From: Candidatus Saccharibacteria bacterium UBA4727
Lineage (GTDB): Bacteria; Patescibacteriota; Saccharimonadia; Saccharimonadales; Saccharimonadaceae
Assembly: GCA_002404195.1 (NCBI GenBank)
Contig: DHJF01000001.1
Span: forward strand, 1 to 52,542
Length of the DNA: 52,542 bases
Direction: 5' to 3'
The notes beneath the pieces were generated by a model, which was given only the letters and a program-made list of their open reading frames with translations, made no database searches and was not told where the DNA came from. A program made the position numbers and the translations under genes. The first letter of the stretch is position 1, and each line of letters begins with the position of its first letter. Shown here piece after piece: positions 7,475 to 50,557 of the stretch.

Positions 7475-7525
7475 ACTATAACTAGTATACCAACTATGAC
7501 GCTGGAAAACTATCAGTTGTCGAAA

Positions 7526-7816
7526 CTACTTTTTATTATTCTCAATCGTTTGTTGAATTTGTTTGACAGAGTCGCCCAGGCCCGGAATATGTATGAACAA
7601 ACTCAGCGTCCACACCAACAGCGCCACCACAATAGTACCGCCAAGAACACTGCCAAGACCAAAGAAGATTCCGCGTATAAAATTCATTTTGTATACTTGT
7701 GCACGGCTTTTATGAAAGTCGTAGAAGAGATCTTCTAGAACGGCGCGCCGAGCACCAAGTTCATTATCGCGTTTTACTTTATCGACGGCTTTTTTTGTTG
7801 AGTGCCTCAGCAGCAT
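7526..7816 (-). CDS. Small membrane protein (DUF5665-like, tentative)
   Basis: 96 aa with a single hydrophobic span, FIRGIFFGLGSVLGGTIVVALLVWTLSLF. Confidence 0.5.
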   Translation of the reverse strand: MLLRHSTKKAVDKVKRDNELGARRAVLEDLFYDFHKSRAQVYKMNFIRGIFFGLGSVLGGTIVVALLVWTLSLFIHIPGLGDSVKQIQQTIENNKK

Positions 7817-7877
7817 AAATTCCCCTTGTCATGCAATTAGTCATTTTAGTGTGTCACGTTCACACCGACATAACAAG

Positions 7878-8135
7878 TTATTTTGTAACTTTAAAGCCTT
7901 CTTTCGCACCCTCAACCGCACCTTCGATAGCGTGTTCACCGCGCGACTTGTACTCTTCCGCCTTGTCTCGTGCGTGCTTGGCTTTTTTAAAACTCTTTTG
8001 CTTCAATTCAGATGCCTTATCTTTGATATCTGCCCGTGTCTCTTTGCCTGATTTTGGAGCAGTCAAAACACCGGCAATAACACCAGCAATGACACCAATA
8101 ACGGCACCGAATGCAAATCTACTTTTCGTTGACAT
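7878..8135 (-). CDS. YtxH-like general stress protein
   Basis: 85 aa. N-terminal glycine-zipper helix FGAVIGVIAGVIAGVLTAPKSGKETR followed by a Lys/Glu-rich helix, the typical YtxH architecture. Confidence 0.7.
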   Translation of the reverse strand: MSTKSRFAFGAVIGVIAGVIAGVLTAPKSGKETRADIKDKASELKQKSFKKAKHARDKAEEYKSRGEHAIEGAVEGAKEGFKVTK

Positions 8136-8385
8136 GTGAGTCTCCTTTCGTCTGATACTTTTTGATAAATTTTGCCACCATCTTCATAATCAGGAGTGGT
8201 GACGCCAACCCACGCACCTGTGAAATTGTCTTTTCAATGACCTTTACAGTACGTTCGGCCGAACCCGCTACCAGACGGATTTGATGCGTCACTTTAATAA
8301 GCATAATGATAAGCGTAATCCCTAAAAGGAGGAATATCCCCAGGAATACCGCCAAAATGACGACGAGCACTTGTGCCCAGTCCAC
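8119..8385 (-). CDS. DUF948/YtxG-like membrane protein
   Basis: 88 aa with an N-terminal TM helix and a coiled region. It sits directly upstream of the YtxH-like gene, the same order as Firmicutes ytxG-ytxH. Confidence 0.55.
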   Translation of the reverse strand: MDWAQVLVVILAVFLGIFLLLGITLIIMLIKVTHQIRLVAGSAERTVKVIEKTISQVRGLASPLLIMKMVAKFIKKYQTKGDSHVNEK

Positions 8386-8637
8386 TTACGCTTGCTCTCT
8401 GCGGAACACTCGAGCTATCCAAATAAGGCCGATTGCGCCAATAACGGCAACGATAAAGCTATAGATATTGAAGCCGTTAACGCCGCTGCCGCCCAATAAC
8501 TCTACGAGCCAGCCGCCGATAACACCACCAACAATACCAAGAATGATGTTTTTTAGTAGTCCGCCCGATTCTTTCATGATTGCTTTCGCAACCAGTCCAG
8601 CTAATGCACCTAGTATGATCCATCCTATCCAGCCCAT
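8386..8637 (-). CDS. GlsB/YeaQ/YmgE-family stress membrane protein
   Basis: 83 aa: MGWIGWIILGALAGLVAKAIM...ILGIVGGVIGGWL, the characteristic transglycosylase-associated (GlsB) pattern. Confidence 0.75.
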   Translation of the reverse strand: MGWIGWIILGALAGLVAKAIMKESGGLLKNIILGIVGGVIGGWLVELLGGSGVNGFNIYSFIVAVIGAIGLIWIARVFRREQA

Positions 8638-8677
8638 AAAATACCCCCTTGATATATTATCGTTTGTTGTACTCCTA

Positions 8678-17992: not shown

Positions 17993-18604
17993 CTAACCGC
18001 GGCCAGCGCGACTCTCGCTCACCTGAGCGTCAGTACCATCGTGTTGAAAATCAGCGTACTTTTCATCAAGCGCATCAATGACCTTTTGCACCAGGCGTGC
18101 TGGGTCAGTATCATAAATCACATCTTTTGCACCCGGGGCTTCGATGTTCTCTAGAAGAACGGGTGTATAGTCAGCTAAGCCGCCGCTGCCAAGGAGAACG
18201 CCACAAACTTTGCGACTTTCAAGCGCCGTCGATAGCTCGTGCAAGCTACCCATACGACCACCGACGGTGATGATGCCGTCACAGCTTCGTACCAGGTGAA
18301 CGTCACGGCCGACATATTCCATGCCAGTGAAGTTGATGTAGTCGAACTCTTTCGTTGGCAAGCGGTAGGTCGCTACGTGCTCGCGGAATGATGCTGCTGG
18401 CGAGAAGCCAATCGATAGACCGCGTCGCTCAGCTGGAACCGACATAACACCCATCGCCGCGTAATGCGGCAGACCGACGGTTGCGCCGGTAAGGAGTGTT
18501 TTGCCCTGCTCGGAAATCGCTTTACCAAGCTCAAAGGCGAGCTTGTGAGATGTCTGCACGGTGGAACCGCTAGCTGCACCTGAAACACAAATCTGATATT
18601 TCAC
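17993..18604 (-). CDS. LOG/TIGR00725-family Rossmann-fold protein (possible nucleotide phosphoribohydrolase)
   Basis: 203 aa. GAASG N-terminus and VGGRMGSLHE, resembling the LOG PGGxGTxxE motif. Start/stop are coupled with the upstream kinase gene at 18604. Confidence 0.6.
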   Translation of the reverse strand: MKYQICVSGAASGSTVQTSHKLAFELGKAISEQGKTLLTGATVGLPHYAAMGVMSVPAERRGLSIGFSPAASFREHVATYRLPTKEFDYINFTGMEYVGRDVHLVRSCDGIITVGGRMGSLHELSTALESRKVCGVLLGSGGLADYTPVLLENIEAPGAKDVIYDTDPARLVQKVIDALDEKYADFQHDGTDAQVSESRAGRG

Positions 18605-20073
18605 TAGGCTACGTCCTTGGTGTGGTAATCGTCGGGAGCGTCTTGTAGGTAGCCTTCGATAGCGTCACGTTGCAATAAACCAGCTTGCGCACCAAGTTGT
18701 TGTACGACGCTCATGCTGTTGATTGGCGCCCATGACAGTGCCGTTTCAAGTGACTCGCCAAGTGCCAAGGCGGCGACGATTGTTGAGGCAAAGGCATCAC
18801 CTGCGCCAGTGCGGTCGTATGGTGGCGCAGGGTCTGGGTAGTTTGGCATCATCAAGGTTCGCTGCCCATCGGACGCGTAGGCGCCATTAGGACCATCGGT
18901 AATAATCACAATTTGCGGGCCAAGCTCGTGCATCGCGCGCATGAGATCAGGCACTGATTCAGTTGATTTACCTGTTACGAGCGCGGCTTCTTCGCGGTTC
19001 ATCACCACGAGATACGTGCGGCGATAGACGCCGGCAAGCTTCTCAATACCCCACTTAAAATGGAAGGTTCCTGGCTGGAAAACTAATTTTGTATCCGGGT
19101 GCTCACATAGATACGCCAGCATGTCTTCGTGCAACTGCCACGACGCTGCACTGATCATCGAGAGATAGATCCAATCCGGCGTGCGCTCGGGCGTTTTCCA
19201 GCTGTAATCATAGTCTTCGTATTTGATCAAAATCGTGCGATCTGCACCGTAGCGCAGCGCGTAGTGGTAGTTTGATTTCATACCTTCCCCAACCGATAAT
19301 GCCGTCGTGTCGACACGCTCGCTGGCGAGATAGTTTAATGAATCTTTACCCGCTTGGTCATCACCCAGCCATGCCATCAGTCCAGCTTCAAGGCCGAGAC
19401 GTGAAAATGCCACGGCAGCATTGGCGGAGTTACCAACAGCTTGCACAATATCAACGTGGTCATATGGCGGCTTAGAACCAAATTCCATACTGAGACGCAT
19501 ACTGCCATCCGGATCAGTATCAATTCGCGCTTGGTCATCGAGTAATTTAATAAACGCATCGGTCACAATATCACCAATGCTCAGAATATAAGGTCGCGCC
19601 ACCGTGTCAGTCTCCTCTGTTTGTTCTTGCTTATGATTATCTGCAGTATACCATAGACCAGCATCGCGGGCGAACTGCTCAACCACCGCATCATCCGTTC
19701 GTGGGTGCGACACGTAACGACCCGTTAATTCACGCTGCAACGACTCATGTAAATGATCGAGAGTGTGACCACCTAGGATATCTTGGTGATTAAATGAGAT
19801 GACACCTTCGGGAAATACCAACCCCACGTAGGCCGTATTAGTAAAAAGTAGTTCGTCGTCACGATGAACAGCCAATGTGCGGCGTAGCTCTAGATAGGTT
19901 GTATCGTTTGGATCAAGCCCAATTGAACGCATCACGGTATGAGCACTGGCCATAATATCAGCGATAAGCCGCACATCAATGCCGTTTTTACCAGCCGCTT
20001 GCTCAAGTTTCTTCATTGCAAAACTAAATTGCGGCTCTTTGGCGTCTAATAAATTTCGTAAAAAAATGCTCAC
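18604..20073 (-). CDS. PfkB-family carbohydrate kinase with a ~165-aa N-terminal domain of unknown function
   Basis: C-terminal DRTGAGDAFASTIVAALALG is the PfkB signature 2. I recognise nothing in the N-terminal third. Confidence 0.75.
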   Translation of the reverse strand: MSIFLRNLLDAKEPQFSFAMKKLEQAAGKNGIDVRLIADIMASAHTVMRSIGLDPNDTTYLELRRTLAVHRDDELLFTNTAYVGLVFPEGVISFNHQDILGGHTLDHLHESLQRELTGRYVSHPRTDDAVVEQFARDAGLWYTADNHKQEQTEETDTVARPYILSIGDIVTDAFIKLLDDQARIDTDPDGSMRLSMEFGSKPPYDHVDIVQAVGNSANAAVAFSRLGLEAGLMAWLGDDQAGKDSLNYLASERVDTTALSVGEGMKSNYHYALRYGADRTILIKYEDYDYSWKTPERTPDWIYLSMISAASWQLHEDMLAYLCEHPDTKLVFQPGTFHFKWGIEKLAGVYRRTYLVVMNREEAALVTGKSTESVPDLMRAMHELGPQIVIITDGPNGAYASDGQRTLMMPNYPDPAPPYDRTGAGDAFASTIVAALALGESLETALSWAPINSMSVVQQLGAQAGLLQRDAIEGYLQDAPDDYHTKDVA

Positions 20074-20166
20074 CCTTTTCCCCTTTTTGTTGTTTGTATT
20101 GTACCACTGAATACCGCTTTTTGCTACAAAACGACAGAGGTCGAGAAAGATTATTTATAAAATAAG

Positions 20167-20195
20167 TTGACAATACGTAATAGACCTTATATAAT
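20167..20195 (+). promoter_or_regulatory. Consensus sigma70 promoter (TTGACA-17-TATAAT)
   Basis: TTGACA at 20167-20172, a 17-nt spacer, and TATAAT at 20190-20195. It lies in a 482-bp gap between two minus-strand genes. Confidence 0.75.
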
Positions 20196-20201
20196 GCGTC
20201 T

Positions 20202-20540
20202 ATCGTCACGATTACTGAGCGTATCGAGGCGACATAATGTAAGTGAGTGTTACCCCATTGGCAGAATTTTTTGTCGATGGAATATACGGGAGCCTCCTCG
20301 GAGATTCCCGCACGTGGATAGTCGCACGCTATGCATTTCATAGTGCTGCGACAGCAAGGAGTGAGTTATTTTTTCGAGCTCTTCGAGTTCACTCTCTCCT
20401 TCCAGGAAAAAGTCCGAGGTCGGTAACCTGGCGACAGCTACTCGGCACGAGTAACAAAATGTAGTCGATTGATTGCAGTCCCCGGTGGTCTTAGTGAGTA
20501 TGGAGTAATCCATGCAGATCCTAAGACCACCGGGTTTTTC
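20202..20540 (+). ncRNA. Unclassified structured RNA (~335 nt) bounded by a promoter and an intrinsic terminator
   Basis: Predicted start is ~7 nt after the -10. Hairpins at 20287-20310, 20321-20352 (13 bp), 20356-20401 and 20402-20431. Terminator at 20481-20539. No Shine-Dalgarno-led ORF. I could not assign a family. Confidence 0.55.
20481..20539 (+). terminator. Intrinsic terminator of the candidate ncRNA
   Basis: 14-bp stem cccggtggtcttag/ctaagaccaccggg enclosing an inner AUGGA-GUAA-UCCAU helix, followed by TTTTT. No U-tract in the minus orientation. Confidence 0.75.
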
Positions 20541-20555
20541 ATTTCCAGATATTTT

Positions 20556-21527
20556 TTATACCGGCTGCTCATGAATTGGCATGGCGTGTAGCTTGGTGCC
20601 TGCCTGTAAAATACCGCCCTTGGCACCAAGTTTCGTAACGACAGAGGTAGAGTTAGCACTCGCGAAGATAATCGAATCTTTCAGCGACTTGTCTTGTGCC
20701 CATTGGCTCAAGAAGCCGCTTGCGAATGCATCACCTGCACCTGTGCGGTCGATAACCTTCACGTCTTCATACATACCAGCACGCACGATTGTCTTACCGT
20801 CACTCGCCACGACGCCATTCGGACCATCGCTGACAATAGCGACAGGTACGTAGTGGAGTGCATGGCGCACTAATTCCTCGAGTGTTTCACCCTCAACGAT
20901 TTGCTGCATTTCTTCTTTATTCATACAGAGCACTTCGACACTCTCGAGCAGTGCTTTTAGCTTTGCCGGGTCAGCTAGCTCTGGACCGGCTGGGTTGAGC
21001 ATAACTTTCGTATTAGCTTTTTCGGCTGCGTCGACAATCAAACGAAGCAATTCTATGCCACCATTTGCCAGCGACGTTGGATAGACCCAATCAGCCTCAG
21101 CAATTGCATTGAAATCAAGATCGGTACCTTTGGTGTCAGTTGAAACACCACGATGATTCAAAATTGTGCGCTCACCGTTGGTTGCAATCAGGATTGTTGA
21201 GTAGCCCGCTTGATAATGTGACTTACGCGTGACACGTGCCGTAGCAACACCCTCATCGTCAAGGTCGCGTAGGACCGTTTCTGAAGCCGGGTCGTGCCCT
21301 AGCGTCCACATATATTCAGAGTGCAGGCCTTGGCGGGCAAATGTCACCGCCACATTACTGGCGTTACCGCCTGTCGCAAACGTCACGTCGCTGACTTCCA
21401 TTTTGACGCCAAGTGGCAAATGAGTGTAGAGAATTTTGCCTTCGGTATGGGGGTCGAACTCGTCACTGCGCAAAAAGACATCCTGCGTGGCTTTGCCGAT
21501 AGCTAGGATTTTCGGAACAGCGGCCAT
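20556..21527 (-). CDS. PfkB-family carbohydrate kinase (ribokinase / phosphofructokinase-2-like)
   Basis: DRTGAGDAFASGFLSQW signature. Start set at the ATG at 21527 (MAAVPKILAIGKATQD), 1 nt after the fba stop. The track start at 21578 would overlap fba by 50 nt. Confidence 0.8.
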   Translation of the reverse strand: MAAVPKILAIGKATQDVFLRSDEFDPHTEGKILYTHLPLGVKMEVSDVTFATGGNASNVAVTFARQGLHSEYMWTLGHDPASETVLRDLDDEGVATARVTRKSHYQAGYSTILIATNGERTILNHRGVSTDTKGTDLDFNAIAEADWVYPTSLANGGIELLRLIVDAAEKANTKVMLNPAGPELADPAKLKALLESVEVLCMNKEEMQQIVEGETLEELVRHALHYVPVAIVSDGPNGVVASDGKTIVRAGMYEDVKVIDRTGAGDAFASGFLSQWAQDKSLKDSIIFASANSTSVVTKLGAKGGILQAGTKLHAMPIHEQPV

Positions 21528-21528
21528 A

Positions 21529-22440
21529 TTATGCAATAGCCTTGCCTGCGCTACCGAAAGCGTTGATTTTCTCCTCAATAACCGCCTGAACCGCTTGGTA
21601 AACCGTTGGCATAAGTTTTACGACGGCATACTCTGTAGGGTTATCAGCGAGCACCTTTTCAAGTGTGTCACGAAATGCCACGCGCATGTCACTGTTGATA
21701 TTGATTTTACTGACACCGATTCTAGCCGCATCTTCAAAGTAATGCAGTGGCGTGCCACTCCCGCCGTGAAGACTAATTTGGCACGGTATCGCATCGCGTA
21801 CGCGCTGCAACAACTCAAGATCAAGTTCTTTCGGTACTGGGTATTTGCCATGCAAGTTACCGATTGCCGCGGCATACGTATCAATCCCCGTTGCTTCAAC
21901 AAACGCGAGTGCACCTTCGGGTGTACTAAAGGTCTTTTTGATTTCTTCATAGTCAATGTTCTCAGTATGGACGTTTGATGAACCACCAAAATAGTGCGGT
22001 TCGCTTTCGACGAGCGCGCCTGTAAACTTGGCGTATTCCACCACTTCTCGAGTTTTTTCGATAATCTCTTCAGTTGTCGCATCGTGATTCGCCTGCGAAA
22101 TATCGATGTGAATAAATTCGTAGCCGGCGTCAATCGCACGCTTGCAGGCCTCGACCGTCGGGCTATGGTCGAGATTGATATACATTTCAATACCGTACTC
22201 TGCCTTATAGTTATCGACAAGATCACGCACGTTATCGATACCGAGCGCTTCAACCTCACCCTGGCTCAGTTCAACCAAGACTGGCGCTTGTAGCTTTTGG
22301 GCGGCGCGACAAATTGCAATCAGCGTCTCTTGGTTATCAATGTTAAAAGCACCGACAGCGAAACCCTGGCTGCGGCTTCGTTGCATCAAGTGGCGGGCAC
22401 GCACGGTATTATCTCGGATTTGTTTGATTGATAAGCTCAT
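21529..22440 (-). CDS. fba: Class II fructose-bisphosphate aldolase
   Basis: 303 aa. FAVGAFNIDNQE, ...HLDHS-type region (NLDHSPT), and LHGGSGTP. Confidence 0.9.
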   Translation of the reverse strand: MSLSIKQIRDNTVRARHLMQRSRSQGFAVGAFNIDNQETLIAICRAAQKLQAPVLVELSQGEVEALGIDNVRDLVDNYKAEYGIEMYINLDHSPTVEACKRAIDAGYEFIHIDISQANHDATTEEIIEKTREVVEYAKFTGALVESEPHYFGGSSNVHTENIDYEEIKKTFSTPEGALAFVEATGIDTYAAAIGNLHGKYPVPKELDLELLQRVRDAIPCQISLHGGSGTPLHYFEDAARIGVSKININSDMRVAFRDTLEKVLADNPTEYAVVKLMPTVYQAVQAVIEEKINAFGSAGKAIA

Positions 22441-22455
22441 ATTTTCTCCTTAGAC

Positions 22456-23445
22456 TTACTGATGATAACGAGGCATACGCTCGATGAATTCTTTAGTTGT
22501 AGCGGCAATCGCAGCCCCGTCGAGACCGAAATGATGCAGCAATTCGTTTGGCGCACCACTCTCGCCGAAGCGATCGCGCATACCAACGCGGTAAACCGGC
22601 ATTGGTAGCTTCTCACTCAGCAGTTCGGTAATCGCCGCACCAAACCCGCCGGTGATTTGAGCTTCTTCGGCAGTAACCGCGCGACCAGTTTTACGGACAC
22701 TCGCAAGAATCGTTTCTTCGTCAAGCGGCTTGATAGTCGGAACGTGCACCACTTGCGCACTAATACCTTTGGCCTCAAGTAGCTCTGCGGCAACGAGCAT
22801 CTGGTAGGTCATCGTACCTGTCCCCAGCAAGCTGACATCGTGACCCTCGCGCAGCACGTAGGCCTTGCCGATTTCAAACGGTGACTCAGTCGTGCTAAAA
22901 ATTGGCGTTTTTTCACGAGCCAAACGCATATAGCTCGGCTTACCATTTTCGGCAATAGCCCGAGTCGCTTTTTCAGCCTCGATACTGTCGCCTGGCGCCA
23001 ACACGATCATATTCGGCAGTGCACGCATCAGGGCGATATCTTCAAGCATTTGGTGGGTTGCGCCGTCAGGCCCCACGCTGACACCTGCGTGCGAACCGAT
23101 CACTTTGACCGGCATATCATTCAGCGCAATCGTCGTCCGAATTTGCTCCCAGTTTCGCCCTGGGCTAAACGCGGCATAGCTACTGGTGAATGGTACCTTG
23201 CCAGCACGGGCCAGGCCGCTCGCGACGGTGACTAAGTTTTGCTCGGCCACGCCCATTTCAATAAAACGCTCAGGAAATGCCGCTTTGAATAAGTGCATCT
23301 GGGTACTGTCAGTCAGGTCGGCACAAAGTGCGACAACGTTCGTATCCGCTTCGCCAGCCGCCTTGAGGCCACGGCCAAAGCCAGCTCGAATCGGTTCTTG
23401 CTGCACGTCGTCATTATGTATGTCGGGGTTTAGTGGGTAGTGCAT
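22456..23445 (-). CDS. Transketolase, C-terminal (pyrimidine-binding) subunit
   Basis: 329 aa. RFIEMGVAEQNLV, GSHAGVSVGPDGATHQ. This is a split transketolase. Confidence 0.9.
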   Translation of the reverse strand: MHYPLNPDIHNDDVQQEPIRAGFGRGLKAAGEADTNVVALCADLTDSTQMHLFKAAFPERFIEMGVAEQNLVTVASGLARAGKVPFTSSYAAFSPGRNWEQIRTTIALNDMPVKVIGSHAGVSVGPDGATHQMLEDIALMRALPNMIVLAPGDSIEAEKATRAIAENGKPSYMRLAREKTPIFSTTESPFEIGKAYVLREGHDVSLLGTGTMTYQMLVAAELLEAKGISAQVVHVPTIKPLDEETILASVRKTGRAVTAEEAQITGGFGAAITELLSEKLPMPVYRVGMRDRFGESGAPNELLHHFGLDGAAIAATTKEFIERMPRYHQ

Positions 23446-24308
23446 TACGCTAAGTCTCCTGAGGTGATTTTGCCGTCAAGCGTACGTAGCTTTTTCAGGG
23501 CGACCTTGGCTTGCTCGGTATTTGGTGGCATACCATGCCATTTGTAGTCGTATTCCATAAAATCAACACCTTTGCCAGGAATAGTGTGTGTAATCACAAC
23601 GCTTGGTTTGTTGCTGATAGCTCGGGCCATACTCGCAGCGTCAATCACACTCTCGATATTATGTCCGTCAATTTCTTGAACGTGCCAGCCAAAGCTTTCC
23701 CACTTGCCACGAAGATCTTCAAGCGGCATGACATCATCGGTCGAACCGTCGATTTGAATATTATTGCGATCGACGAAAACAATCAATTGACTCAACTTGT
23801 ATTTACCAGCGAACATGGCGGCTTCCCAGATGTTACCCTCGTCAAGTTCACCATCGCCAGTAATCGCGTAGACAAAACGATGCTTGGCGTTGTCGAGATA
23901 TTGCAGACTATAAGCGTAACCGGCTGCTTGTGATAAACCACTGCCAAGTGGGCCGCTGGTATTTTCAAGACCTGGTAACTTGGTACGTTCTGGGTGACCT
24001 TGCAAACGGCTGCCAAGTTTACGGAGGGTCTGCAGTTCGCTTACTGGGAAATAACCGCGCTCAGCCATAGCGGCATATTGCACCGGCACACAGTGGCCGT
24101 TACTCAGGAAGAAGACATCACGCTCCGGCCACTCCGGCTTACTCGGGTCGATATTCATAATATTGAAGTACAACGCCGTCAGCACGTCAGCCAAGCCAAG
24201 CGGACCAGCGCTGTGGCCACTGCCAGCCTCTACGAGCATACGAATGATATCCTGACGAATATCATTCGCCTTCTTTTCCAATTGCGTGATTGTTAATTGC
24301 CCACCCAT
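23445..24308 (-). CDS. Transketolase, N-terminal (TPP-binding) subunit
   Basis: 287 aa. GSGHSAGPLG and ITGDGELDEGNIWEA (TPP motif). 1-nt overlap with the C-terminal subunit gene. Confidence 0.9.
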   Translation of the reverse strand: MGGQLTITQLEKKANDIRQDIIRMLVEAGSGHSAGPLGLADVLTALYFNIMNIDPSKPEWPERDVFFLSNGHCVPVQYAAMAERGYFPVSELQTLRKLGSRLQGHPERTKLPGLENTSGPLGSGLSQAAGYAYSLQYLDNAKHRFVYAITGDGELDEGNIWEAAMFAGKYKLSQLIVFVDRNNIQIDGSTDDVMPLEDLRGKWESFGWHVQEIDGHNIESVIDAASMARAISNKPSVVITHTIPGKGVDFMEYDYKWHGMPPNTEQAKVALKKLRTLDGKITSGDLA

Positions 24309-24312
24309 TGTT

Positions 24313-24957
24313 CTAAATTATCCCGTGTTTATTAATTTCACTTACCAGTGTATCATAAGCGACTTTCGGGTCGGGCGCCTTTTGAATAGCCCCGCCAGCG
24401 TTCAACACGTCGACGCCACCTTGCGTTAGGTTGTAAGCATTATCAACCGCGATACCACCATCCCAGCCAATTTCAACATTCGGATTAATCGCTTTAATCA
24501 GACGGATTTTTTCAAGCTGCATGAGATTCGCCGTGCCGCCGAAACGCCCCAGCGTTCCGCTAAAAATCATGACGTGATCGGCCGCTTGGATCATCGGCGC
24601 AACATCGCCCGGTACCGTTGAACGCTGCAGCGCGACGCCCGCTTTAATACCGACACTTTTGATCTTCTGAAGCATCTGGACAATATCACCCTCAGCCTCG
24701 GCGTGCAAAATAATAAGACTTGGCTTGACACTAATGAGCGCCGGTAGCTGTTCAGCTGGGCGCTGTACCATCGCATGAATGTCCACTTGCCAGTTTTCTG
24801 GCCACCACACCTGGTTGGCATCGACTAAAAACGTTGGTGTAAATTCCCCATCAGAAATATCGATATGAACTCGCTCGGCGAACGTATGAATCCGACCGAC
24901 CTGAATTTTATAGTCGTCGGTACTTTCGGCCGTCACGCAGGGAGCAATCACACTCAT
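24313..24957 (-). CDS. rpe: Ribulose-phosphate 3-epimerase
   Basis: 214 aa. HIDISDGEFTP, ILHAEA, and the overall Rpe barrel pattern. Confidence 0.8.
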   Translation of the reverse strand: MSVIAPCVTAESTDDYKIQVGRIHTFAERVHIDISDGEFTPTFLVDANQVWWPENWQVDIHAMVQRPAEQLPALISVKPSLIILHAEAEGDIVQMLQKIKSVGIKAGVALQRSTVPGDVAPMIQAADHVMIFSGTLGRFGGTANLMQLEKIRLIKAINPNVEIGWDGGIAVDNAYNLTQGGVDVLNAGGAIQKAPDPKVAYDTLVSEINKHGII

Positions 24958-25407
24958 TTACAGCTCGTCGATCTGCGCGTTACGGCGCTTGTAGCGAATT
25001 GCACTTGCAAATGGCGTCTTGAGCCAGGTATCGAGAATATCCTGCCACTCGGTTGCATCATTTTCAAGAATACGCGCTGGCAAACATAAGATATTGCTAT
25101 CGTTGTCATTGCGGGTCATCTTTGCCTCGTAGGCATCCCAGATCACACTGGCGCGGATACCGCGAAAACGATTCGCCGCCATTGCCATACCCTGGCCGCC
25201 ACCACAAATAAGAATCGCACGTGGATCTTTGCCGTCATCACCAATCACCTTTAATGCTGCCATCTGGGCAAACTCGGGGAAATCATCGACTGGGTCGAGT
25301 TCTTTACTACTCACATCTTCGACTTCATAGCCGTGTTTCGCCAAATACGCAAACACATCTGTTTTCATAGCATACCCTTGATGGTCTGCACCTAAGTAGA
25401 TCTTCAT
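24958..25407 (-). CDS. rpiB: Ribose-5-phosphate isomerase B
   Basis: MKIYLGADHQGY...ILICGGGQGMAMAANRFRGIRA. Start at 25407; the longer track ORF runs through the gap terminator and promoter. Confidence 0.85.
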   Translation of the reverse strand: MKIYLGADHQGYAMKTDVFAYLAKHGYEVEDVSSKELDPVDDFPEFAQMAALKVIGDDGKDPRAILICGGGQGMAMAANRFRGIRASVIWDAYEAKMTRNDNDSNILCLPARILENDATEWQDILDTWLKTPFASAIRYKRRNAQIDEL

Positions 25408-29186: not shown

Positions 29187-29717
29187 TTATTTTTCGTTCC
29201 AACGAGTGATAGATTCGTGGATAATCGCCTTGGCCTCTTCCACGTCACCCCAGCCTTTTACAACGGTGCTACCTGGTTTTTTGAGGTCTTTATAGTGCGT
29301 AAAGTGGTGTTCAATCTGCGCAATTTTTTGTTTAGGCAAATCCGCCAGTGATGTAATGGCGTTGCCGGTATTACGGTCGTCAGCCGGCACGACCACGATC
29401 TTATCATCGATTTCGTCGTCGTCGACAAAGCGCATCACGCCAATCACACGAGCTTCAAGGAAGATACCTGTTGGCAGTGGTGCGTCGGTAATGATGAGTG
29501 CGTCGAGTTCATCGCCATCCTCGTCAAGCGTCTGTGGGATGAAGCCGTAGTTGGTAGGTTTTGCAAAAATTGCTGGGTCCACACGGTCGAGCTGCATGAC
29601 TGCAAGGTCGCGGTTCCATTCAATTTTATGTGAACTGCCTTCGGGAATTTCAACAACAACGTTAATAATACCGTCGTCAACATTGCCAGGTGTAAGAATT
29701 TGATTAAAATCAGCCAT
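29187..29717 (-). CDS. ppa: Inorganic pyrophosphatase (family I)
   Basis: 176 aa. VVVEIPEGSSHKIEWN, YGFIPQTL..DGDELDAL. GGAG Shine-Dalgarno, with TGgTACAAT upstream. Confidence 0.9.
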   Translation of the reverse strand: MADFNQILTPGNVDDGIINVVVEIPEGSSHKIEWNRDLAVMQLDRVDPAIFAKPTNYGFIPQTLDEDGDELDALIITDAPLPTGIFLEARVIGVMRFVDDDEIDDKIVVVPADDRNTGNAITSLADLPKQKIAQIEHHFTHYKDLKKPGSTVVKGWGDVEEAKAIIHESITRWNEK

Positions 29718-29776
29718 ATCGTATCTCCGTTATTTACTATAACTATTGTACCAAATTTGTTATACTAACAGTAATT

Positions 29777-39998: not shown

Positions 39999-40838
39999 AT
40001 GGCTACTAAGAAAGCCGCTTCAAACGCAAAGAAATCGACGACCAACAGGTCGGTTGCCAAGAAGCAAAATACAACAAAAGTAACGACCGTCAAAGCCGTA
40101 GAATCACACCCGATTCACCGCGCTGCCAGTACTGGAAATGTCTCCCGACGACTTGGCTTGATGCGCACACCACTTGTTGCTGCATTGATCGCTGAGTTCA
40201 TCGGAACTTTCATTTTCGCAGGCGCAGTTATCGCTAGCTCAGGTCAGCCACTCTATGTATTATTTGCATTAGTTGGTGTTGTTCTCGCGATCGGTACAAT
40301 CTCAGGTGGCTATGCCAACCCTGCGCTTGTTATCGGTGCATGGGTAACACGTCGCATGTCGGGTATGCGTGCAATCGCTTACATCGTTGCCCAAGTTTTG
40401 GGTGCAATGCTTGCGTTGGCTCTGCTTAGCGCATTCGTGCACGCGGTACCACAAGCTACAACTGCCTACAGCAATGCGCCAGCACTGTTCAAGGTCGCGG
40501 CACTTCCTAAGGACCACGAATGGTTCATCTTCTGGAGCGAACTTGTTGGTATGGCAATCTTCGGATTTGCTGCTGCAAGCGCCCTACGTCGTGAGACAAA
40601 GCGCCTGACTGCTGCCCTCACTCTTGGCCTTGGTTTATTCCTTGGTTTGATGGTTGCCGGCTCAGCTGCCGCTTACCTTAGCGCAACGACCGTATTGAAC
40701 CCAGCTGTCGCTGTGGCTCTTCAAGGTATCAACTTCACAAGCATCTGGCCAATCGCCATTTACTTTGTTGGTACGTCTATCGGTGCAGTTATCGGATTTG
40801 TCTTGTTTGACTACCTCCGCGCTGCTGAAAAAAAATAA
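39999..40838 (+). CDS. MIP-family channel (aquaporin/glycerol facilitator) with a basic ~55-aa N-terminal extension
   Basis: Two NPA boxes (GGYANPALV, VLNPAVAV). AAGGAGGG Shine-Dalgarno 7 nt upstream supports the long start. TGcTATACT promoter element upstream. Confidence 0.85.
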   Translation: MATKKAASNAKKSTTNRSVAKKQNTTKVTTVKAVESHPIHRAASTGNVSRRLGLMRTPLVAALIAEFIGTFIFAGAVIASSGQPLYVLFALVGVVLAIGTISGGYANPALVIGAWVTRRMSGMRAIAYIVAQVLGAMLALALLSAFVHAVPQATTAYSNAPALFKVAALPKDHEWFIFWSELVGMAIFGFAAASALRRETKRLTAALTLGLGLFLGLMVAGSAAAYLSATTVLNPAVAVALQGINFTSIWPIAIYFVGTSIGAVIGFVLFDYLRAAEKK

Positions 40839-40904: not shown

Positions 40905-41376
40905 GTCATTCTAGACCTGATCCAGAATCCAGTAATTACTTCATCAGCTGAACTTCCTTCATCCTTTCTTCCTGGAAAGAAACAAAGCCCTTGTACTTTT
41001 TGCTTCAAAAGTACCAAAACCGTTTTAATTGAAAAAGACACGTCCTCGCGAACGATTCGACGAAAGTGGCTGGTTGCTTCTCGGGGTCGCTCACAGCCCC
41101 TGGCTCGGCACGAGGAGTGCGCGGCTCATGGCAAAGGGATTCTATTGATGACACTATGTGCTGTAGCTAGCGTGAGCCAGCCCTTCGGACTCTTCTGTCC
41201 GAGTGGAACTTGTCGCGGAGCGAGCCAAACGCCATGGGCGAGCTTATAGCTCCCCATAGAGTGCGCCCGAGAGAAGAACGGGTGCGGAGGGGTGGGTGGT
41301 AAGAAGTGTGGAGATTAAAACAGGGCGCAAGATACTAATCTATCACGACTGAATTCTGGATTGAGTCCAGAATGAC
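40905..41376. mobile_element. 472-bp non-coding element bounded by 28-bp imperfect terminal inverted repeats (MITE-like), G+C-rich and highly structured inside
   Basis: Left end is gtcattctagacctgatccagaatccag (40905-40932). The reverse complement of the right end (41349-41376) is gtcattctggactcaatccagaattcag, 23/28 identical. Each end is itself an 8-bp hairpin (ATTCTGGA-N5-TCCAGAAT). No credible ORF and no obvious target-site duplication. Confidence 0.35.
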
Positions 41377-41395
41377 ATTGCGACAAGCTTATCGT

Positions 41396-42475
41396 CTATT
41401 CATCGCTCTGTGGCTTGTCGATAAGCAGTGGCTCGACACCCGGCTCATTGCCGGCAATCTTCACCACGTCTTTATCGATCTTTTTAAGCTCTTTATGAGC
41501 ATTGTTATAATGATTCACCGTCGTGCCGAGACTACTACCGAGTTTCTGCATAAAGCTATCGTAGGCGCTGATATGCCGCCCAAGCTGACCAACACGCACC
41601 TGAATCTCTTTGGCTTGCTCTTCGATTTGCAGGCTGCGCAGGCCCTGCAGCACGGTCTGTAGGTACGCCATGAAGCTGGTTGGGCTAACGATAATCACCT
41701 TCTTATCACGAAAGGCATATTCAATTAAGTCACGCGCACTACTCCCCGTACCGACATCACCAATCAGCAGATCATAATAAAGCGACTCACTCGGAATAAA
41801 CATAAAGGCAAAGTCCATCGTATTTTCACTCGGTCGAATATATTTGCTGGTCTCGTCAATGCGGCCTTTAAGATCATTGCGTACCAGCGCCAGTAGTTGC
41901 GCTTTTTTCACCTTGTCGTTTTCGCCCACCATGCGATTGTAGTTTTCTAGGCTAAACTTGCTATCAATCGGCAGCACTTGGTCTTTTTCTAAAAACACCA
42001 CAGCATCAACAATATCTCCGTTGGTAAATTTATACTGCATCTGGAATTGCTTTGGCGGCAGAATATTATCGAGGACTGACTCTAAATAATACTCACCGAA
42101 TACGCCGCGTTGCTTTGGATTTTGCAGGACATTTTGCAATGTCTTCAATTCGTCGGCGACATCAATTACTCGCCGGTTTGTTTCATCGAGTTTTGCCAGG
42201 CGCTGCGTGACGTCACTCACCAATTTCGCACTTTCACTCAGTTGTTTTTGCATCGAGGTCTGCATGGCAACATTGCTCCGCTCCATTTTGTCGCCCATGT
42301 TTTGTTGTAGCAGCGCAATCGTGCGCGACAGCTCCGTGACATCGGCCTTCATCATATCAACCGAGCCGCTATTTTTTAGCTCACGCAGGCGTTGGTTCAA
42401 CACCACAACGATAAGGCAAAAACCAACGACAACAACCACCAGTACACAAATAAGGATAATCAGATTCATGTTCAT
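41396..42475 (-). CDS. rmuC: DNA recombination protein RmuC
   Basis: 359 aa. N-terminal TM helix, a long coiled coil, then a C-terminal nuclease-like region (FAFMFIPSESLYYD...VIIVSPTSFMAYL). Confidence 0.85.
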   Translation of the reverse strand: MNMNLIILICVLVVVVVGFCLIVVVLNQRLRELKNSGSVDMMKADVTELSRTIALLQQNMGDKMERSNVAMQTSMQKQLSESAKLVSDVTQRLAKLDETNRRVIDVADELKTLQNVLQNPKQRGVFGEYYLESVLDNILPPKQFQMQYKFTNGDIVDAVVFLEKDQVLPIDSKFSLENYNRMVGENDKVKKAQLLALVRNDLKGRIDETSKYIRPSENTMDFAFMFIPSESLYYDLLIGDVGTGSSARDLIEYAFRDKKVIIVSPTSFMAYLQTVLQGLRSLQIEEQAKEIQVRVGQLGRHISAYDSFMQKLGSSLGTTVNHYNNAHKELKKIDKDVVKIAGNEPGVEPLLIDKPQSDE

Positions 42476-44264: not shown

Positions 44265-45227
44265 ATGCGTAAATATAGCAAAGTCATTTTAGCCAGTCTT
44301 GTCGTCATTATTTTGACTGTCGTCATCGTGCGTTACGTCGGCAGCCTCCATATCCCAATGCTCGACCCCAAAGGCATCGTCGCCCTCAAAGAGCGTAATC
44401 TAATGGCGTTCACGCTTCTATTCGGTTTTTTCGTTATGATACCGGTTTTCGGGATGACCATCGCCATCGCCTGGCGCTACCGCGAGGGCAACACCAAGGC
44501 CCGCTATACGCCAAATGCCGGCACTAATCGCATCGCCGAGACGGTCTGGTGGGGTATTCCAATTGTCATTATTCTCATCCTATCGATCGTCACCTGGGTC
44601 AGCACCAAAGACATCGACCCATTCAAGCCACTCGACCCTCACGCCAAATCAATGACCATCAAGGTTGTAGCGCTGAACTGGAAATGGCTCTTTATCTACC
44701 CCGACGCAGGCAATATCGCCACTGTTAATTATGTACAGTTCCCCGTCAACACCCCGGTCACCTTTGAACTGACAGCCGACGCGCCGATGAACTCGTTCTG
44801 GATTCCACAGCTCGGTGGTCAACTCTACGCCATGCCAGGCATGATTACCAAACTAAATTTAAATGCTACCGAAGTTGGTGAATACAAAGGCTCATCAGCC
44901 AATATCAGTGGCGCGGGTTTTGCCGGCATGAAGTTTATCGCTAAAGCTAGTTCACAGCATGATTTTGACACCTGGGTTGCAAAAACCCAAAAAGCGCCGC
45001 AGCAGCTCGACCACGCTACGTACGCCGAGCTAGCGAAAGATAGCACCAACAACCCCGTCGCCTCCTATGGTACTACTTCGAGTGACCTGTATGATACGAT
45101 TGTTATGAAATACATGATGCCGACAACATCGGCGACGAAATCAACAACCGACACTAAGGCAGCACAGATGGACCACATGCACATGGAAGGTATGGATATG
45201 AGCACAATGAATATGGGAACAAATTAA
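44265..45227 (+). CDS. cyoA: Cytochrome bo3-type quinol oxidase subunit II
   Basis: 320 aa. MNSFWIPQLGGQLYAMPGMITKLNL...SGAGFAGMKF is the quinol-oxidase type with no CuA Cys ligands. Met/His-rich C-terminal tail. TGcTAGAAT at 44231-44239. Confidence 0.9.
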   Translation: MRKYSKVILASLVVIILTVVIVRYVGSLHIPMLDPKGIVALKERNLMAFTLLFGFFVMIPVFGMTIAIAWRYREGNTKARYTPNAGTNRIAETVWWGIPIVIILILSIVTWVSTKDIDPFKPLDPHAKSMTIKVVALNWKWLFIYPDAGNIATVNYVQFPVNTPVTFELTADAPMNSFWIPQLGGQLYAMPGMITKLNLNATEVGEYKGSSANISGAGFAGMKFIAKASSQHDFDTWVAKTQKAPQQLDHATYAELAKDSTNNPVASYGTTSSDLYDTIVMKYMMPTTSATKSTTDTKAAQMDHMHMEGMDMSTMNMGTN

Positions 45228-47212
45228 TGAACGACCTACTGCATTTTATTTTTGGAAAATTATCCTTGAATGCTATCCCGCACGTGCCCATGACCCTTGG
45301 CGCCGGTATAGGCATGCTTCTTGCCCTCGGCAGCCTGATTGGCTTCGTTACTTACCTCAAGCGCTGGAAATGGCTGTGGGCGGAGTGGTTTACCTCACTC
45401 GACCCGAAGAAGATTGGTACCATGTACTTAATCGTGGCAACTATTATGTTGCTTCGTGGTTTTTCCGATGTCATGCTGATGCGTGTCCAGCAGGCGTTAT
45501 CGGTTGGTTCGTCGCACGGTATCGTCGACGCCGCTACCTTCCAGCAGATTTTCTCCGCCCACGGCTCAATCATGATCTTCTTCGTTGCCATGGGTTTGAT
45601 GTTCGGCCTGATTAACCTTGTAGTGCCACTACAAATTGGTGCCCGCGACGTCGCTTTTCCATTCCTAAACTCAATCAGCTTCTGGCTGTTTACCGCCGGT
45701 ATGATTATCATTAACTGTCCCATGGTACTCGGTGAATTCTCGGCGGCTGGCTGGCTGGCATACCCACCACTTTCAGAACTGGCCTACAGTCCGGGTGTCG
45801 GCGTTGACTACTGGATTTGGAGCCTGCAAATTGCCGGTGTCGGCAGCTTGCTCTCTGGCGTTAACTTCCTGGTCACGATTATTAAAATGCGTGCGCCAGG
45901 CATGAAAATGATGCGTCTGCCAATTTTTTCTTGGAGTGTTTTAATTACGATGGTGATGGTGATTTTCGCCTTTCCTATTCTGACCGCCACCCTTGGCATG
46001 CTCTACCTTGATCGCTCAATGGGTATGCATTTCTTTACCGCTGACGGTGGTGGCAATATGATGATGTACGTTAACTTAATTTGGGCCTGGGGCCACCCTG
46101 AAGTCTACATTCTGGTGTTGCCGGCGTTTGGCGTCTTTTCAGAGATCGTGGCGACATTCTCGCGCAAACGACTATTCGGCTATGCATCTATGGTCGGCGC
46201 ACTCAGCGCAATTGCTTTCTTCTCGTTTATCGTCTGGCTCCACCACTTTTTCACCATGGGTGCCGGTTCAGACGTCAACGCTTTCTTTGGCATTATGACG
46301 ATGATTATCGGCATTCCGACTGGGGTAAAAATCTTCAACTGGCTCTTCACGATGTTCCGCGGACGCATCAAGTTCACTAGCCCGATGATTTGGTTCCTCG
46401 GCTTTGTCTTCTTGTTTACCACCGGTGGCATGAGTGGCGTCATGCTGGCGATTCCCGGCATCGACTATCAAGTCCACAACAGCCTCTTTTTGGTCGCCCA
46501 CTTCCATACGATGATTATTAGCGGCGTAGTCTTTGGTCTGTTCGCCGGCGTCACCTACTGGTTCCCAAAGATTTTCGGCTTTAGTCTACACGAAGGCCTC
46601 GGCAAAGCGGCCGCCTGGTGCTGGATTATCGGCTTTATCTTTGCGTTCGGACCGCTCTATATTCTTGGTCTGATGGGTGCTACTCGACGACTTGATCACT
46701 ACGATTCGATTCACGGCTGGCAAACACTCTTTATCGTTGCCGGCGTTGGTGCGATGATTGTCGGTCTCGGTATCGTCTGTCAATTATTGCAAATTTTCTT
46801 CAGTATCAAGAATCGTAAAAAGAATCTTGATACCACCGGTGACCCTTGGAATGGTCGTACCCTTGAATGGTCGACCGTCTCACCAGCACCGTTCTACAAC
46901 TACGCTGTCATTCCGACAATTACCGACCGTGACCAATTCTGGGAAGATAAGCAATCGGGCAAAATCCACGAGCCGAAGCAGTATGCCGACATCAAACTAC
47001 CAAAGAACACTGGCGTCGGTGTGATTGTTGGTGGCCTCAGCTTCTTAGTTGGCTTCGCGGCCGTCTGGCACCTGGCATGGCTCGCCATTGCTGGCGTCCT
47101 CGCAACTATTATCATCTTGATTATTCATTTATCACGTGATGATAACGAATACACTATTTCAGCCGAAGAACTTAAAAAACTTGATACGCCCAGAAAGGAG
47201 CAACTAGCATGA
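45227..47212 (+). CDS. cyoB: Cytochrome bo3-type quinol oxidase subunit I
   Basis: 661 aa heme-copper oxidase core (WAWGHPEVYILVLPAFG, HHFFTMG, VAHFHTM). TAATG overlap with cyoA. Confidence 0.95.
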   Translation: MNDLLHFIFGKLSLNAIPHVPMTLGAGIGMLLALGSLIGFVTYLKRWKWLWAEWFTSLDPKKIGTMYLIVATIMLLRGFSDVMLMRVQQALSVGSSHGIVDAATFQQIFSAHGSIMIFFVAMGLMFGLINLVVPLQIGARDVAFPFLNSISFWLFTAGMIIINCPMVLGEFSAAGWLAYPPLSELAYSPGVGVDYWIWSLQIAGVGSLLSGVNFLVTIIKMRAPGMKMMRLPIFSWSVLITMVMVIFAFPILTATLGMLYLDRSMGMHFFTADGGGNMMMYVNLIWAWGHPEVYILVLPAFGVFSEIVATFSRKRLFGYASMVGALSAIAFFSFIVWLHHFFTMGAGSDVNAFFGIMTMIIGIPTGVKIFNWLFTMFRGRIKFTSPMIWFLGFVFLFTTGGMSGVMLAIPGIDYQVHNSLFLVAHFHTMIISGVVFGLFAGVTYWFPKIFGFSLHEGLGKAAAWCWIIGFIFAFGPLYILGLMGATRRLDHYDSIHGWQTLFIVAGVGAMIVGLGIVCQLLQIFFSIKNRKKNLDTTGDPWNGRTLEWSTVSPAPFYNYAVIPTITDRDQFWEDKQSGKIHEPKQYADIKLPKNTGVGVIVGGLSFLVGFAAVWHLAWLAIAGVLATIIILIIHLSRDDNEYTISAEELKKLDTPRKEQLA

Positions 47213-50420: not shown

Positions 50421-50449
50421 TTGAGCCAGTACAGAGAAAATGGTACAAT
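50421..50449 (+). promoter_or_regulatory. Promoter of tRNA-Gln (TTGAGC-17-TACAAT with TGn extension)
   Basis: TTGAGC at 50421-26 and TGgTACAAT at 50441-49, ~34 nt upstream of the tRNA 5' end. Confidence 0.6.
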
Positions 50450-50482: not shown

Positions 50483-50557
50483 TGGGGTGTCGCCAAGTGG
50501 TAAGGCACTGGTTTCTGGTACCAGCATTCGGGGGTTCGAATCCCTCCACCCCAGCCA
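50483..50557 (+). tRNA. tRNA-Gln (anticodon CUG), CCA encoded
   Basis: Hand-folded cloverleaf. Acceptor UGGGGUG/CACCCCA with U1-A72 and G73. Anticodon stem CUGGU/ACCAG with loop UUCUGGU. T arm GGGGG-UUCGAAU-CCCUC. Near-identical in layout to E. coli tRNA-Gln. Confidence 0.9.

Follow-up and report, generated by a model that had tools for sequence, protein, structure and literature searches.

A predicted stand-alone structured RNA gene on an accessory cassette within a metabolic operon of Saccharibacteria

The closest described counterparts of the RNA reported here are raiA, ROOL, GOLLD, OLE, and HEARO, i.e., stand-alone, medium-sized, non-coding RNAs with many covarying helices, a promoter and terminator of their own, and a patchy distribution, whose function was likewise unknown at discovery. 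Saccharibacteria and other bacteria of the candidate phyla radiation (CPR) have tiny genomes with very little non-coding DNA, and our literature search on their non-coding RNAs found no lineage-specific regulatory or structural RNA described. Here, we analyze 52,542 nt of core chromosome from a metagenome-assembled genome of Saccharibacteria (TM7, Candidatus Saccharimonadales), namely contig DHJF01000001.1 of assembly GCA_002404195.1, hereafter called the window. In it, a non-coding RNA of about 340 nt (folded as 339 nt) is predicted on the plus strand from ~20202 to ~20540, within an accessory cassette of 482 bp (20074-20555) that separates two minus-strand genes for PfkB-family proteins, k2 and k1. 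A first-pass annotation, made from the letters alone, had pointed out this 482-bp gap, and both its extent and the kinase identity of its neighbours were borne out. Unlike raiA, ROOL, GOLLD, OLE, and HEARO, the cassette RNA matches no RNA model, occurs in two lineages of one Saccharibacteria clade (the window and one other locus, L093), has no associated protein genes, lies neither in a prophage nor near tRNA genes, and evolves unusually fast in sequence relative to its flanking genes.

Several other systems resemble the cassette in part. Enterobacterial island small RNAs (sRNAs), such as the Salmonella Isr RNAs and InvR, are also promoter-to-terminator genes on small accessory inserts that vary among close relatives. 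Those sRNAs are mostly 80-200 nt long and act by base pairing through single-stranded seeds, often with dependence on Hfq, whereas the cassette RNA is ~340 nt long, almost fully paired, and without an evident seed or target. Correia/CREE, REP/BIME, and BOX elements and miniature inverted-repeat transposable elements (MITEs) are similarly short, hairpin-rich inserts between operon genes that add promoter activity and alter the expression of neighbours, but the cassette is single copy, has no terminal inverted repeats or target duplication, and holds a complete RNA gene with its terminator. Lastly, the expected high expression from a very strong promoter, the stable fold, and a proposed shape-dependent non-coding role recall 6S RNA and CsrB/RsmZ; the cassette RNA differs in having no long irregular duplex with a central bubble of the 6S type, no repeated GGA loop motifs, and no model match.

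The predicted transcription unit begins at a sigma-70 promoter, TTGACA-17-TATAAT (20167-20195, plus strand), with a predicted start site near A20202. The first-pass annotation had called this the best promoter match in the window, which it is: it matches the consensus at 12/12 positions, and no other site in the 52.5 kb, on whichever strand, reaches 11/12. An A/T-rich block resembling an UP element, AAAGATTATTTATAAAA (20146-20162, plus strand), stands at about -40 to -56 of this promoter and is unique in the window. From the consensus -35 and -10 hexamers and this block, and assuming promoter rules of the Escherichia coli type, we infer strong transcription of the RNA. The unit would end at a compound intrinsic terminator (20481-20540, plus strand), which had been described as a 14-bp stem with a GNRA-capped inner helix at 20481-20534 followed by TTTTT, and which is present there as such: perfect 14-nt arms (20481-20494/20521-20534) enclose an inner AUGGA-GUAA-UCCAU helix and a conserved AGA bulge and are followed by UUUUU, with a folding energy of -38.1 kcal/mol (z = -8.8). 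A candidate 11-nt tetraloop receptor in the terminator, UAUGG/CCUAAG, was rejected by eye, as both stems, inner and outer, already use its bases and L093 does not conserve them.

The L093 contig, whose k1 and k2 are 71% and 89% identical to those of the window, carries an insert of 423 bp in exactly the same place and with the same junctions, including the GTG AGC start of k1. The two inserts are homologous per nhmmer (E = 7e-9), and a covariance model of window hairpins H2-H5 alone (defined below) picks up L093 at 18.8 bits (E ~0.002). The L093 promoter, TTGACA-17-TATTAT with an upstream TG, matches at 11/12 positions and is the best match in its locus; the UP-like block is 100% identical, and the whole region 5' of the RNA is nearly invariant between the two, reading AAAGATTATTTATAAAA, then GTTGACAATA-N-GTAATA, then the start-site context TCTAYCGTCA. 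The L093 terminator (-41 kcal/mol) is likewise followed by a U-tract, and in both homologues a terminator with a U-tract is found on the plus strand only. The RNA body between these ends is only ~55% identical, with indels, as against ~80% for the flanking coding DNA.

When folded, plus-strand positions 20202-20540 reach a minimum free energy (MFE) of -139 kcal/mol, compared with -97 ± 6 kcal/mol for dinucleotide shuffles (z = -7.4; 0/100 shuffles as good), and the L093 RNA reaches z = -10.7. All four hairpins that the first-pass annotation had listed (20287-20310, 20321-20352, ~20357-20400, and CCAGG...CCUGG at 20402-20431) are in the MFE fold, together with two further ones (H1 and H2). H1 (20203-20232) is a 5'-terminal hairpin directly after the predicted start, with a conserved 5' strand, YCGUCA; its five homologous pairs are all kept, one of them through a double change. 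H2 (20255-20280) has a conserved 3' strand, UUUGUCG, and nine homologous pairs, with two double changes and four one-sided changes through G·U. H3 (20287-20310) has a GGGA/UCCC core, and H4 (20321-20352) is a 13-bp hairpin with one bulged C in both homologues, in which 8/13 pairs are changed on both sides and none is broken (MFE -16.2 kcal/mol in the window and -19.8 kcal/mol in L093). H5 (20357-20400), supported by the fold and the pair table, is a two-tier hairpin flanked by conserved CAAGG...CCUU. All of these lie on the plus strand, and the same architecture of H1, H2, H3, H4, two-tier H5, and compound terminator is found in both homologues.

Between H5 and the terminator the two copies diverge. 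A 44-nt segment of the window (20402-20446, plus strand), comprising the CCAGG...CCUGG hairpin and two strings discussed below for their likeness to RNase P RNA, has no counterpart in L093 in any alignment; in the window's MFE fold this segment is the 3' strand of a long-range helix that pairs with 20229-20255 (GUUACC/GGUAAC and others). It is followed by a 3' joining region (20447-20480, plus strand), and the homologous stretch of L093 is the 3' strand of that copy's closing helix. L093 closes H2-H5 with a different pairing that has no homology to that of the window (CCGC, UGAG, AUAU/AUGU, CUCA, GCGG). In these models a closed multi-helix topology looks conserved, with the closing helix itself not established.

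Pairs of the window and L093 were scored by covariance-model-guided alignment and by a manual pair table, as MAFFT misaligned the hairpins. In the manual table, every homologous pair (65/65) is a Watson-Crick or G·U pair in the window and in L093 alike; both sides have changed in 29, a single side in 7, and neither side in 29, and no pair is broken. The terminator's outer stem, 14 bp in both homologues, has 11/14 pairs changed on both sides. In the covariance-model-derived alignment, 96.6% of cells are paired, and 17 of the 48 pairs are double-changed, compared with no more than 3 after sliding the 3' partners by 1-3 columns; 0/500 column shuffles reached the observed values, for an alignment that is itself fitted to the model. 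The predicted secondary structure is, on this evidence, maintained by compensatory substitutions. Read on the plus strand, the helices contain 11 G·U pairs and not a single A·C pair, and the pairing would therefore take place in plus-strand RNA rather than in DNA or a minus-strand transcript; this strand call agrees with the orientation of the promoter and the U-tract. Within the RNA, conserved sequence clusters at the bases of helices (GUCG/CGAC, CAAGG/CCUU, and GGGA/UCCC), in the 3' joining region (CACG, AACAA, and AUGUA), and towards the apex of the 3' hairpin (UGGA-N4-UCCA, the AGA bulge, and CCUA). No tandem or dispersed repeats were found among the hairpins, of the kind seen in type III antitoxin, CsrB-like, or TIGR-like arrays.

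Searches for known families, which the first-pass annotation had proposed as a check, gave no match. At the gathering threshold, Rfam 15 detects tRNA-Gln alone in the whole window, and a permissive scan (E up to 10) of 20050-20650 returned only noise far below threshold (traJ_5, CopA, and JUMPstart); permissive scans of both homologues again yielded noise, including miRNA hairpins, and no RNase P, transfer-messenger RNA (tmRNA), signal recognition particle (SRP) RNA, or 6S RNA. Per ARAGORN, the window contains tRNA-Gln at 50483 and no tmRNA. The first-pass annotation had likewise reported tmRNA, SRP, and 6S features as missing from the sequence. With no family match, no conserved open reading frame (ORF), and a promoter, terminator, and six helices all conserved in L093, the core proposal of that annotation, an independently transcribed plus-strand structured RNA of unknown class, is supported. 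We regard it as highly likely that the cassette holds a real structured RNA gene. The two copies form a putative new RNA family of two members, with no Rfam 15 match and no description in the literature searched, although the kind to which it belongs, a stand-alone structured non-coding RNA on a small accessory insert, is familiar.

To place the cassette among relatives, the k2-k1 junction was sampled in 80 species-representative Saccharibacteria loci, of which 72 were evaluable, and in 12 look-ups of close kinase relatives. In 69/72 evaluable species loci k2 and k1 adjoin, with gaps of -4 to 70 bp. Three loci have k2-k1 gaps of 552-734 bp with sequence unrelated to the cassette (L038 1766-2501, L073 1777-2501, and L075 1858-2411); read by eye, these inserts appear to code for protein, those of L038 and L073 on the opposite strand and that of L075 on the same strand. 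Ten closer relatives, showing 68-90% identity to the window in k1 or 92-97% in k2, also have no insert, with gaps of 5-17 bp (L006, L090, L091, L092, L094, L095, L096/L097, L150, L151, and L152). Thus the homologous intergenic regions, whose collection had been recommended in the first-pass annotation, were nearly all empty; the synteny survey places the cassette in two lineages only, and L093 was the only homologue that the 80 species-level loci and 12 look-ups yielded. The k2-k1 junction seems to be a permissive spot for insertions.

Searches by sequence pattern were extended beyond these loci. The promoter-block and terminator patterns had 0 matches in viral contigs, and a looser pattern for the terminator apex had 45 matches, none with the H2-H5 domain. 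Among metagenome contigs, the promoter-block pattern retrieved 7 unrelated promoters and missed even the window's own JGI contig, so that the scan appears uninformative for this organism. No similar DNA was found in phage and plasmid collections.

The closest comparison is offered by locus L006 (JGI 3300012001, Ga0120167_1002351), from a sample that is a sister of the one that gave the window sequence. L006 is 100% identical to the window over 4.55 kb upstream (compared with window 20556-25400), then shows 13 mismatches in the final 333 nt of k2 before the junction, and beyond the junction has no cassette and carries an L090-like allele with 87% identity to the window. Unless two co-occurring populations were assembled into a chimera in L006, this amounts to a presence/absence polymorphism within a single population and bears the mark of a recombination boundary. 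The empty site reads ...CCGGTATAG GGACT ATGTCA ATATTTTTACG, and the filled site reads ...CCGGTATAA, then the insert, which ends in GGGGAAAAGG GTGAGC, then ATTTTTTTACG; the insert replaces 12 nt of the empty site and supplies the start codon of k1 (GTG AGC, 20073-20068). The nearest relatives of both the window and L093 (L094-L097) are empty. The empty state is ancestral, and the insert was thus gained in two lineages. Recombination appears common at these kinase genes, because their identity profiles among relatives are mosaic; sliding identity between the window and L093 gave no clear signal of recombination tracts. The cassette was probably gained, most simply, by homologous recombination through the conserved flanking kinase genes and not by transposition.

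The explanation we favour overall, and hold to be somewhat more probable than not, is that of a stand-alone accessory non-coding RNA gene on a recombining cassette. A plus-strand non-coding RNA would be transcribed from ~20202 to ~20540, ending at the very stable intrinsic terminator, and would consist of a 5' hairpin, then H2-H5 apparently closed by a long-range helix, then the large 3' terminator hairpin, leaving few bases unpaired. The cassette sits as an insertion in an otherwise tightly packed pentose-phosphate/glycolysis operon, with its own extended -10 promoter and new GTG start presumably keeping k1 expressed, and most likely passes from one related population to another when the flanking kinase genes undergo homologous recombination. 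The RNA would be long-lived, because both its ends are locked in hairpins, abundant, and trans-acting, with shape mattering more than sequence. Its mode of action would tentatively be that of a scaffold or decoy for a protein, rather than that of a base-pairing regulator or a cis element, because the stems evolve freely at fixed geometry, little of the molecule is single-stranded, no seed is evident, and no gene is overlapped. Accessory status and rapid evolution would moreover suggest a conflict-type function. Taken further, the two copies could found a new class of structured accessory RNAs in ultra-small episymbiotic bacteria (CPR/Saccharibacteria), very highly expressed, quick to change in sequence yet rigid in shape, traded by homologous recombination, and serving not in housekeeping but in genetic conflict, for instance as decoys or inhibitors of a phage- or host-derived RNA-binding protein or nuclease; this broader picture we consider improbable.

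The main competing explanation starts from the setting of the cassette. The minus-strand operon comprises rpiB, rpe, a split transketolase, a class II aldolase, k2, k1, a SLOG-cluster4 protein, and uvrB; in the direction of the operon, the cassette lies downstream of k2 (20556-21527, minus strand), a PfkB kinase of 323 aa, and upstream of k1 (18604-20073, minus strand), a PfkB-family protein of 489 aa with a long N-terminal extension. The insert might act solely in cis as an operon insulator with no function in trans: a hairpin after the k2 stop, convergent transcription, and possible antisense pairing would uncouple k1, the SLOG gene, and uvrB from the genes before them, and an extended -10 promoter on the cassette would drive them. 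The insert indeed splits genes that otherwise adjoin (-4 to 70 bp) and are possibly translationally coupled, and the RNA gene converges on k2, its terminator ending 16 nt from the k2 stop codon. The cassette also brings k1 a new start codon and an extended -10 promoter of its own, TGGTACAAT (20098-20106, minus strand), with TGATACAAT at the equivalent place in L093. The motif TGGTACAAT occurs three times in the window, at 20098-20106 (-), 29745-29753 (-), and 50441-50449 (+), standing upstream of k1, of an ORF starting at 29717 (-), and of tRNA-Gln (50441), respectively. Since the same motif precedes tRNA-Gln, it is presumably a native promoter type and drives k1. An extended -10 without a good -35 may be the usual promoter type in this organism, in which case the consensus -35/-10 promoter of the RNA would stand out even more.

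Nevertheless, we consider an insulator unlikely as the whole explanation. It accounts for the location of the cassette, but a promoter and a terminator would suffice for it, and the five internal helices preserved through 18 double compensatory changes are left unexplained. The predicted transcript overlaps neither kinase coding region. In the direction of the operon, moreover, the hairpin is followed by GGGGACUGC and no U-tract, and would be a poor terminator of read-through transcription.

A further alternative takes the cassette for a non-autonomous mobile DNA element, either a MITE or a palindrome-associated transposable element (PATE)-like derivative of IS200/605, with hairpins that act in DNA and a promoter that is an outward-reading by-product. 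Such an element would fit the variable presence among very close relatives, the patchy distribution in which the nearest relatives of each carrier are empty, and the richness in hairpins. We find it quite improbable. By way of terminal inverted repeats, the junctions show nothing more than a 9-nt A/T-rich match, and comparison of the filled and empty sites reveals no target-site duplication but a replacement of 12 nt. Neither the covariance model nor nhmmer found a second copy, be it in the window, across 520 kb of Saccharibacteria loci, or across 480 kb of viral and metagenome loci that had been selected by pattern; a weak match to the covariance model in L080 (13 bits) was rejected, as it falls inside a 372-aa ORF. 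The identical site and junctions of both carriers fit recombinational transfer better than transposition, and the presence of 11 G·U but 0 A·C pairs speaks for pairing at the RNA level, on a single strand. Among the window ORFs scanned, there are no reverse transcriptase, transposase, or Cas genes, and there is no TnpB or IscB gene in the regions scanned.

We would like to note that the window does contain a candidate for a MITE-type element elsewhere, at 40906-41379 (~475 bp), between ORFs at 39999-40838 (+) and 41396-42475 (-). Its ends are terminal inverted repeats of 28 bp, GTCATTCTAGACCTGATCCAGAATCCAG (40906-40933) and CTGAATTCTGGATTGAGTCCAGAATGAC (41352-41379), and it folds strongly on both strands (MFE/nt -0.36). 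It looks quite different from the RNA cassette.

One could also read the RNA as a conditional element similar to a riboswitch, in which a multi-stem sensing domain controls the terminator and read-through yields an antisense RNA over the kinase/aldolase/transketolase operon. A closed multi-helix junction followed by a terminator does resemble an aptamer with its expression platform, and transcription is antisense to a central-metabolism operon. However, no antiterminator was found: the best duplexes with the 5' strand of the terminator reach -17 kcal/mol, whereas shuffled sequences average a stronger -21 and -22 kcal/mol, and the terminators themselves are very stable in both copies (-38 and -41 kcal/mol). 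For a ligand pocket, the core shows little sequence conservation, no Rfam riboswitch matches, and on the plus strand nothing is encoded downstream, only the antisense of a kinase gene. This reading is accordingly very improbable.

That the insert instead encodes one or more small proteins has a minimal chance of being right. The first-pass annotation had listed a GTG-started ORF of 73 codons at 20243; it exists (20243-20464, plus strand) but is not conserved in L093. Gene callers put an 87-aa hypothetical protein at 20250-20513 (minus strand), across the RNA, in several public assemblies, and its product has no homologue but itself among 5.8 billion proteins. In the L093 insert no gene is called, and a six-frame comparison of both inserts gave only short matches in mixed frames over the conserved promoter and terminator DNA, and no shared ORF. 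The substitutions, furthermore, follow the compensation of paired stems and not codons. The 87-aa ORF is almost certainly a spurious call by these comparisons, and its annotation over the RNA should be corrected.

Finally, that the cassette holds a housekeeping RNA in divergent or minimal form (RNase P, tmRNA, SRP, or 6S) has next to no probability and appears ruled out, because nearly all relatives lack the gene at this site, a near-identical strain among them. This is incompatible with an essential single-copy gene, unless all other genomes keep it elsewhere and only these two lineages moved it to the same place. The resemblance that had suggested RNase P RNA (RF00010/RF00011) lies in a similar length, within the RNase P/tmRNA range, in a P8-like CCAGG..GGUAAC..CCUGG of the window copy, and in the strings GGAAAAAGUCCGAGG and ACAGCUACUCGGC (at about 20405-20418 and 20434-20447), which recall the CR-I and CR-V strands of helix P4. 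In RNase P RNA, these universally conserved strands stand far apart near the ends of the molecule and enclose the specificity domain. Here only 20 nt separate the two, at a distance of ~200 nt from the start site, as had already been found hard to reconcile with the canonical layout. The strings themselves are thus present as first described, but the likeness to RNase P does not hold: the 44-nt P4-like segment is specific to the window and missing from L093, even with E up to 10 the models of RNase P, tmRNA, SRP, and 6S give no match, ARAGORN is negative, and the gene is dispensable. RNase P was rejected as a candidate, and we take the resemblance to be a coincidence.

As for the remainder of the window, the identical sequence of the 489-aa kinase k1 is also found on DIZS01000043.1 (GCA_002429445.1) and on several metagenome contigs, and its homologues are labelled Saccharimonadales/Saccharibacteria in their source records. 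The PfkB domain of k1 is confined to residues 214-466; the N-terminal ~200 residues have no Pfam match, yet are conserved across Saccharibacteria. The SLOG-cluster4 gene (17993-18604) shares one base with k1, and the two genes form a conserved pair. Elsewhere, the window encodes housekeeping functions, including DnaE, GatA/B, PheS/T, RelA/SpoT, a DEAD-box helicase, an ABC transporter, and a heme-copper oxidase subunit; the last of these, the subunit I gene COX1 (45227-47212, plus strand; E = 3e-143), implies some ability to use or detoxify oxygen. A stretch of 1.2 kb (7475-8677) has no ORF of at least 130 aa, its longest stop-free runs being ~100 codons.

Several observations weigh against the favoured reading of a trans-acting RNA gene and should temper it. 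The family has two members only, for which there is no phylogeny-aware covariation statistic, and their locations are not independent. Folding energy alone leaves the strand unsettled, as the homologues disagree: in L093 it is the minus strand that has the slightly lower energy (-132.7 vs -127.4 kcal/mol for the plus strand). The long-range closing helix is built from non-homologous segments in the window and L093. The other recognisable promoters in the window are of the extended -10 type, and expression is read from consensus matches, assuming E. coli-like promoter rules in Saccharibacteria. The scaffold or decoy mode, in particular, is a judgement from anatomy and, taken by itself, is less probable than not.

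With so few family members and so little sign of what the RNA does, the significance of the finding is modest for now. The locus is, all the same, a clean natural example of a gene-sized indel exchanged by homologous recombination, and strains of the window type and of the L006 type in sister samples offer a natural comparison for metatranscriptomics. An RNA gene with a maximal promoter in a core metabolic operon, present in one strain and missing from a near-identical other, would give rare access to the biology of accessory RNAs in CPR bacteria.

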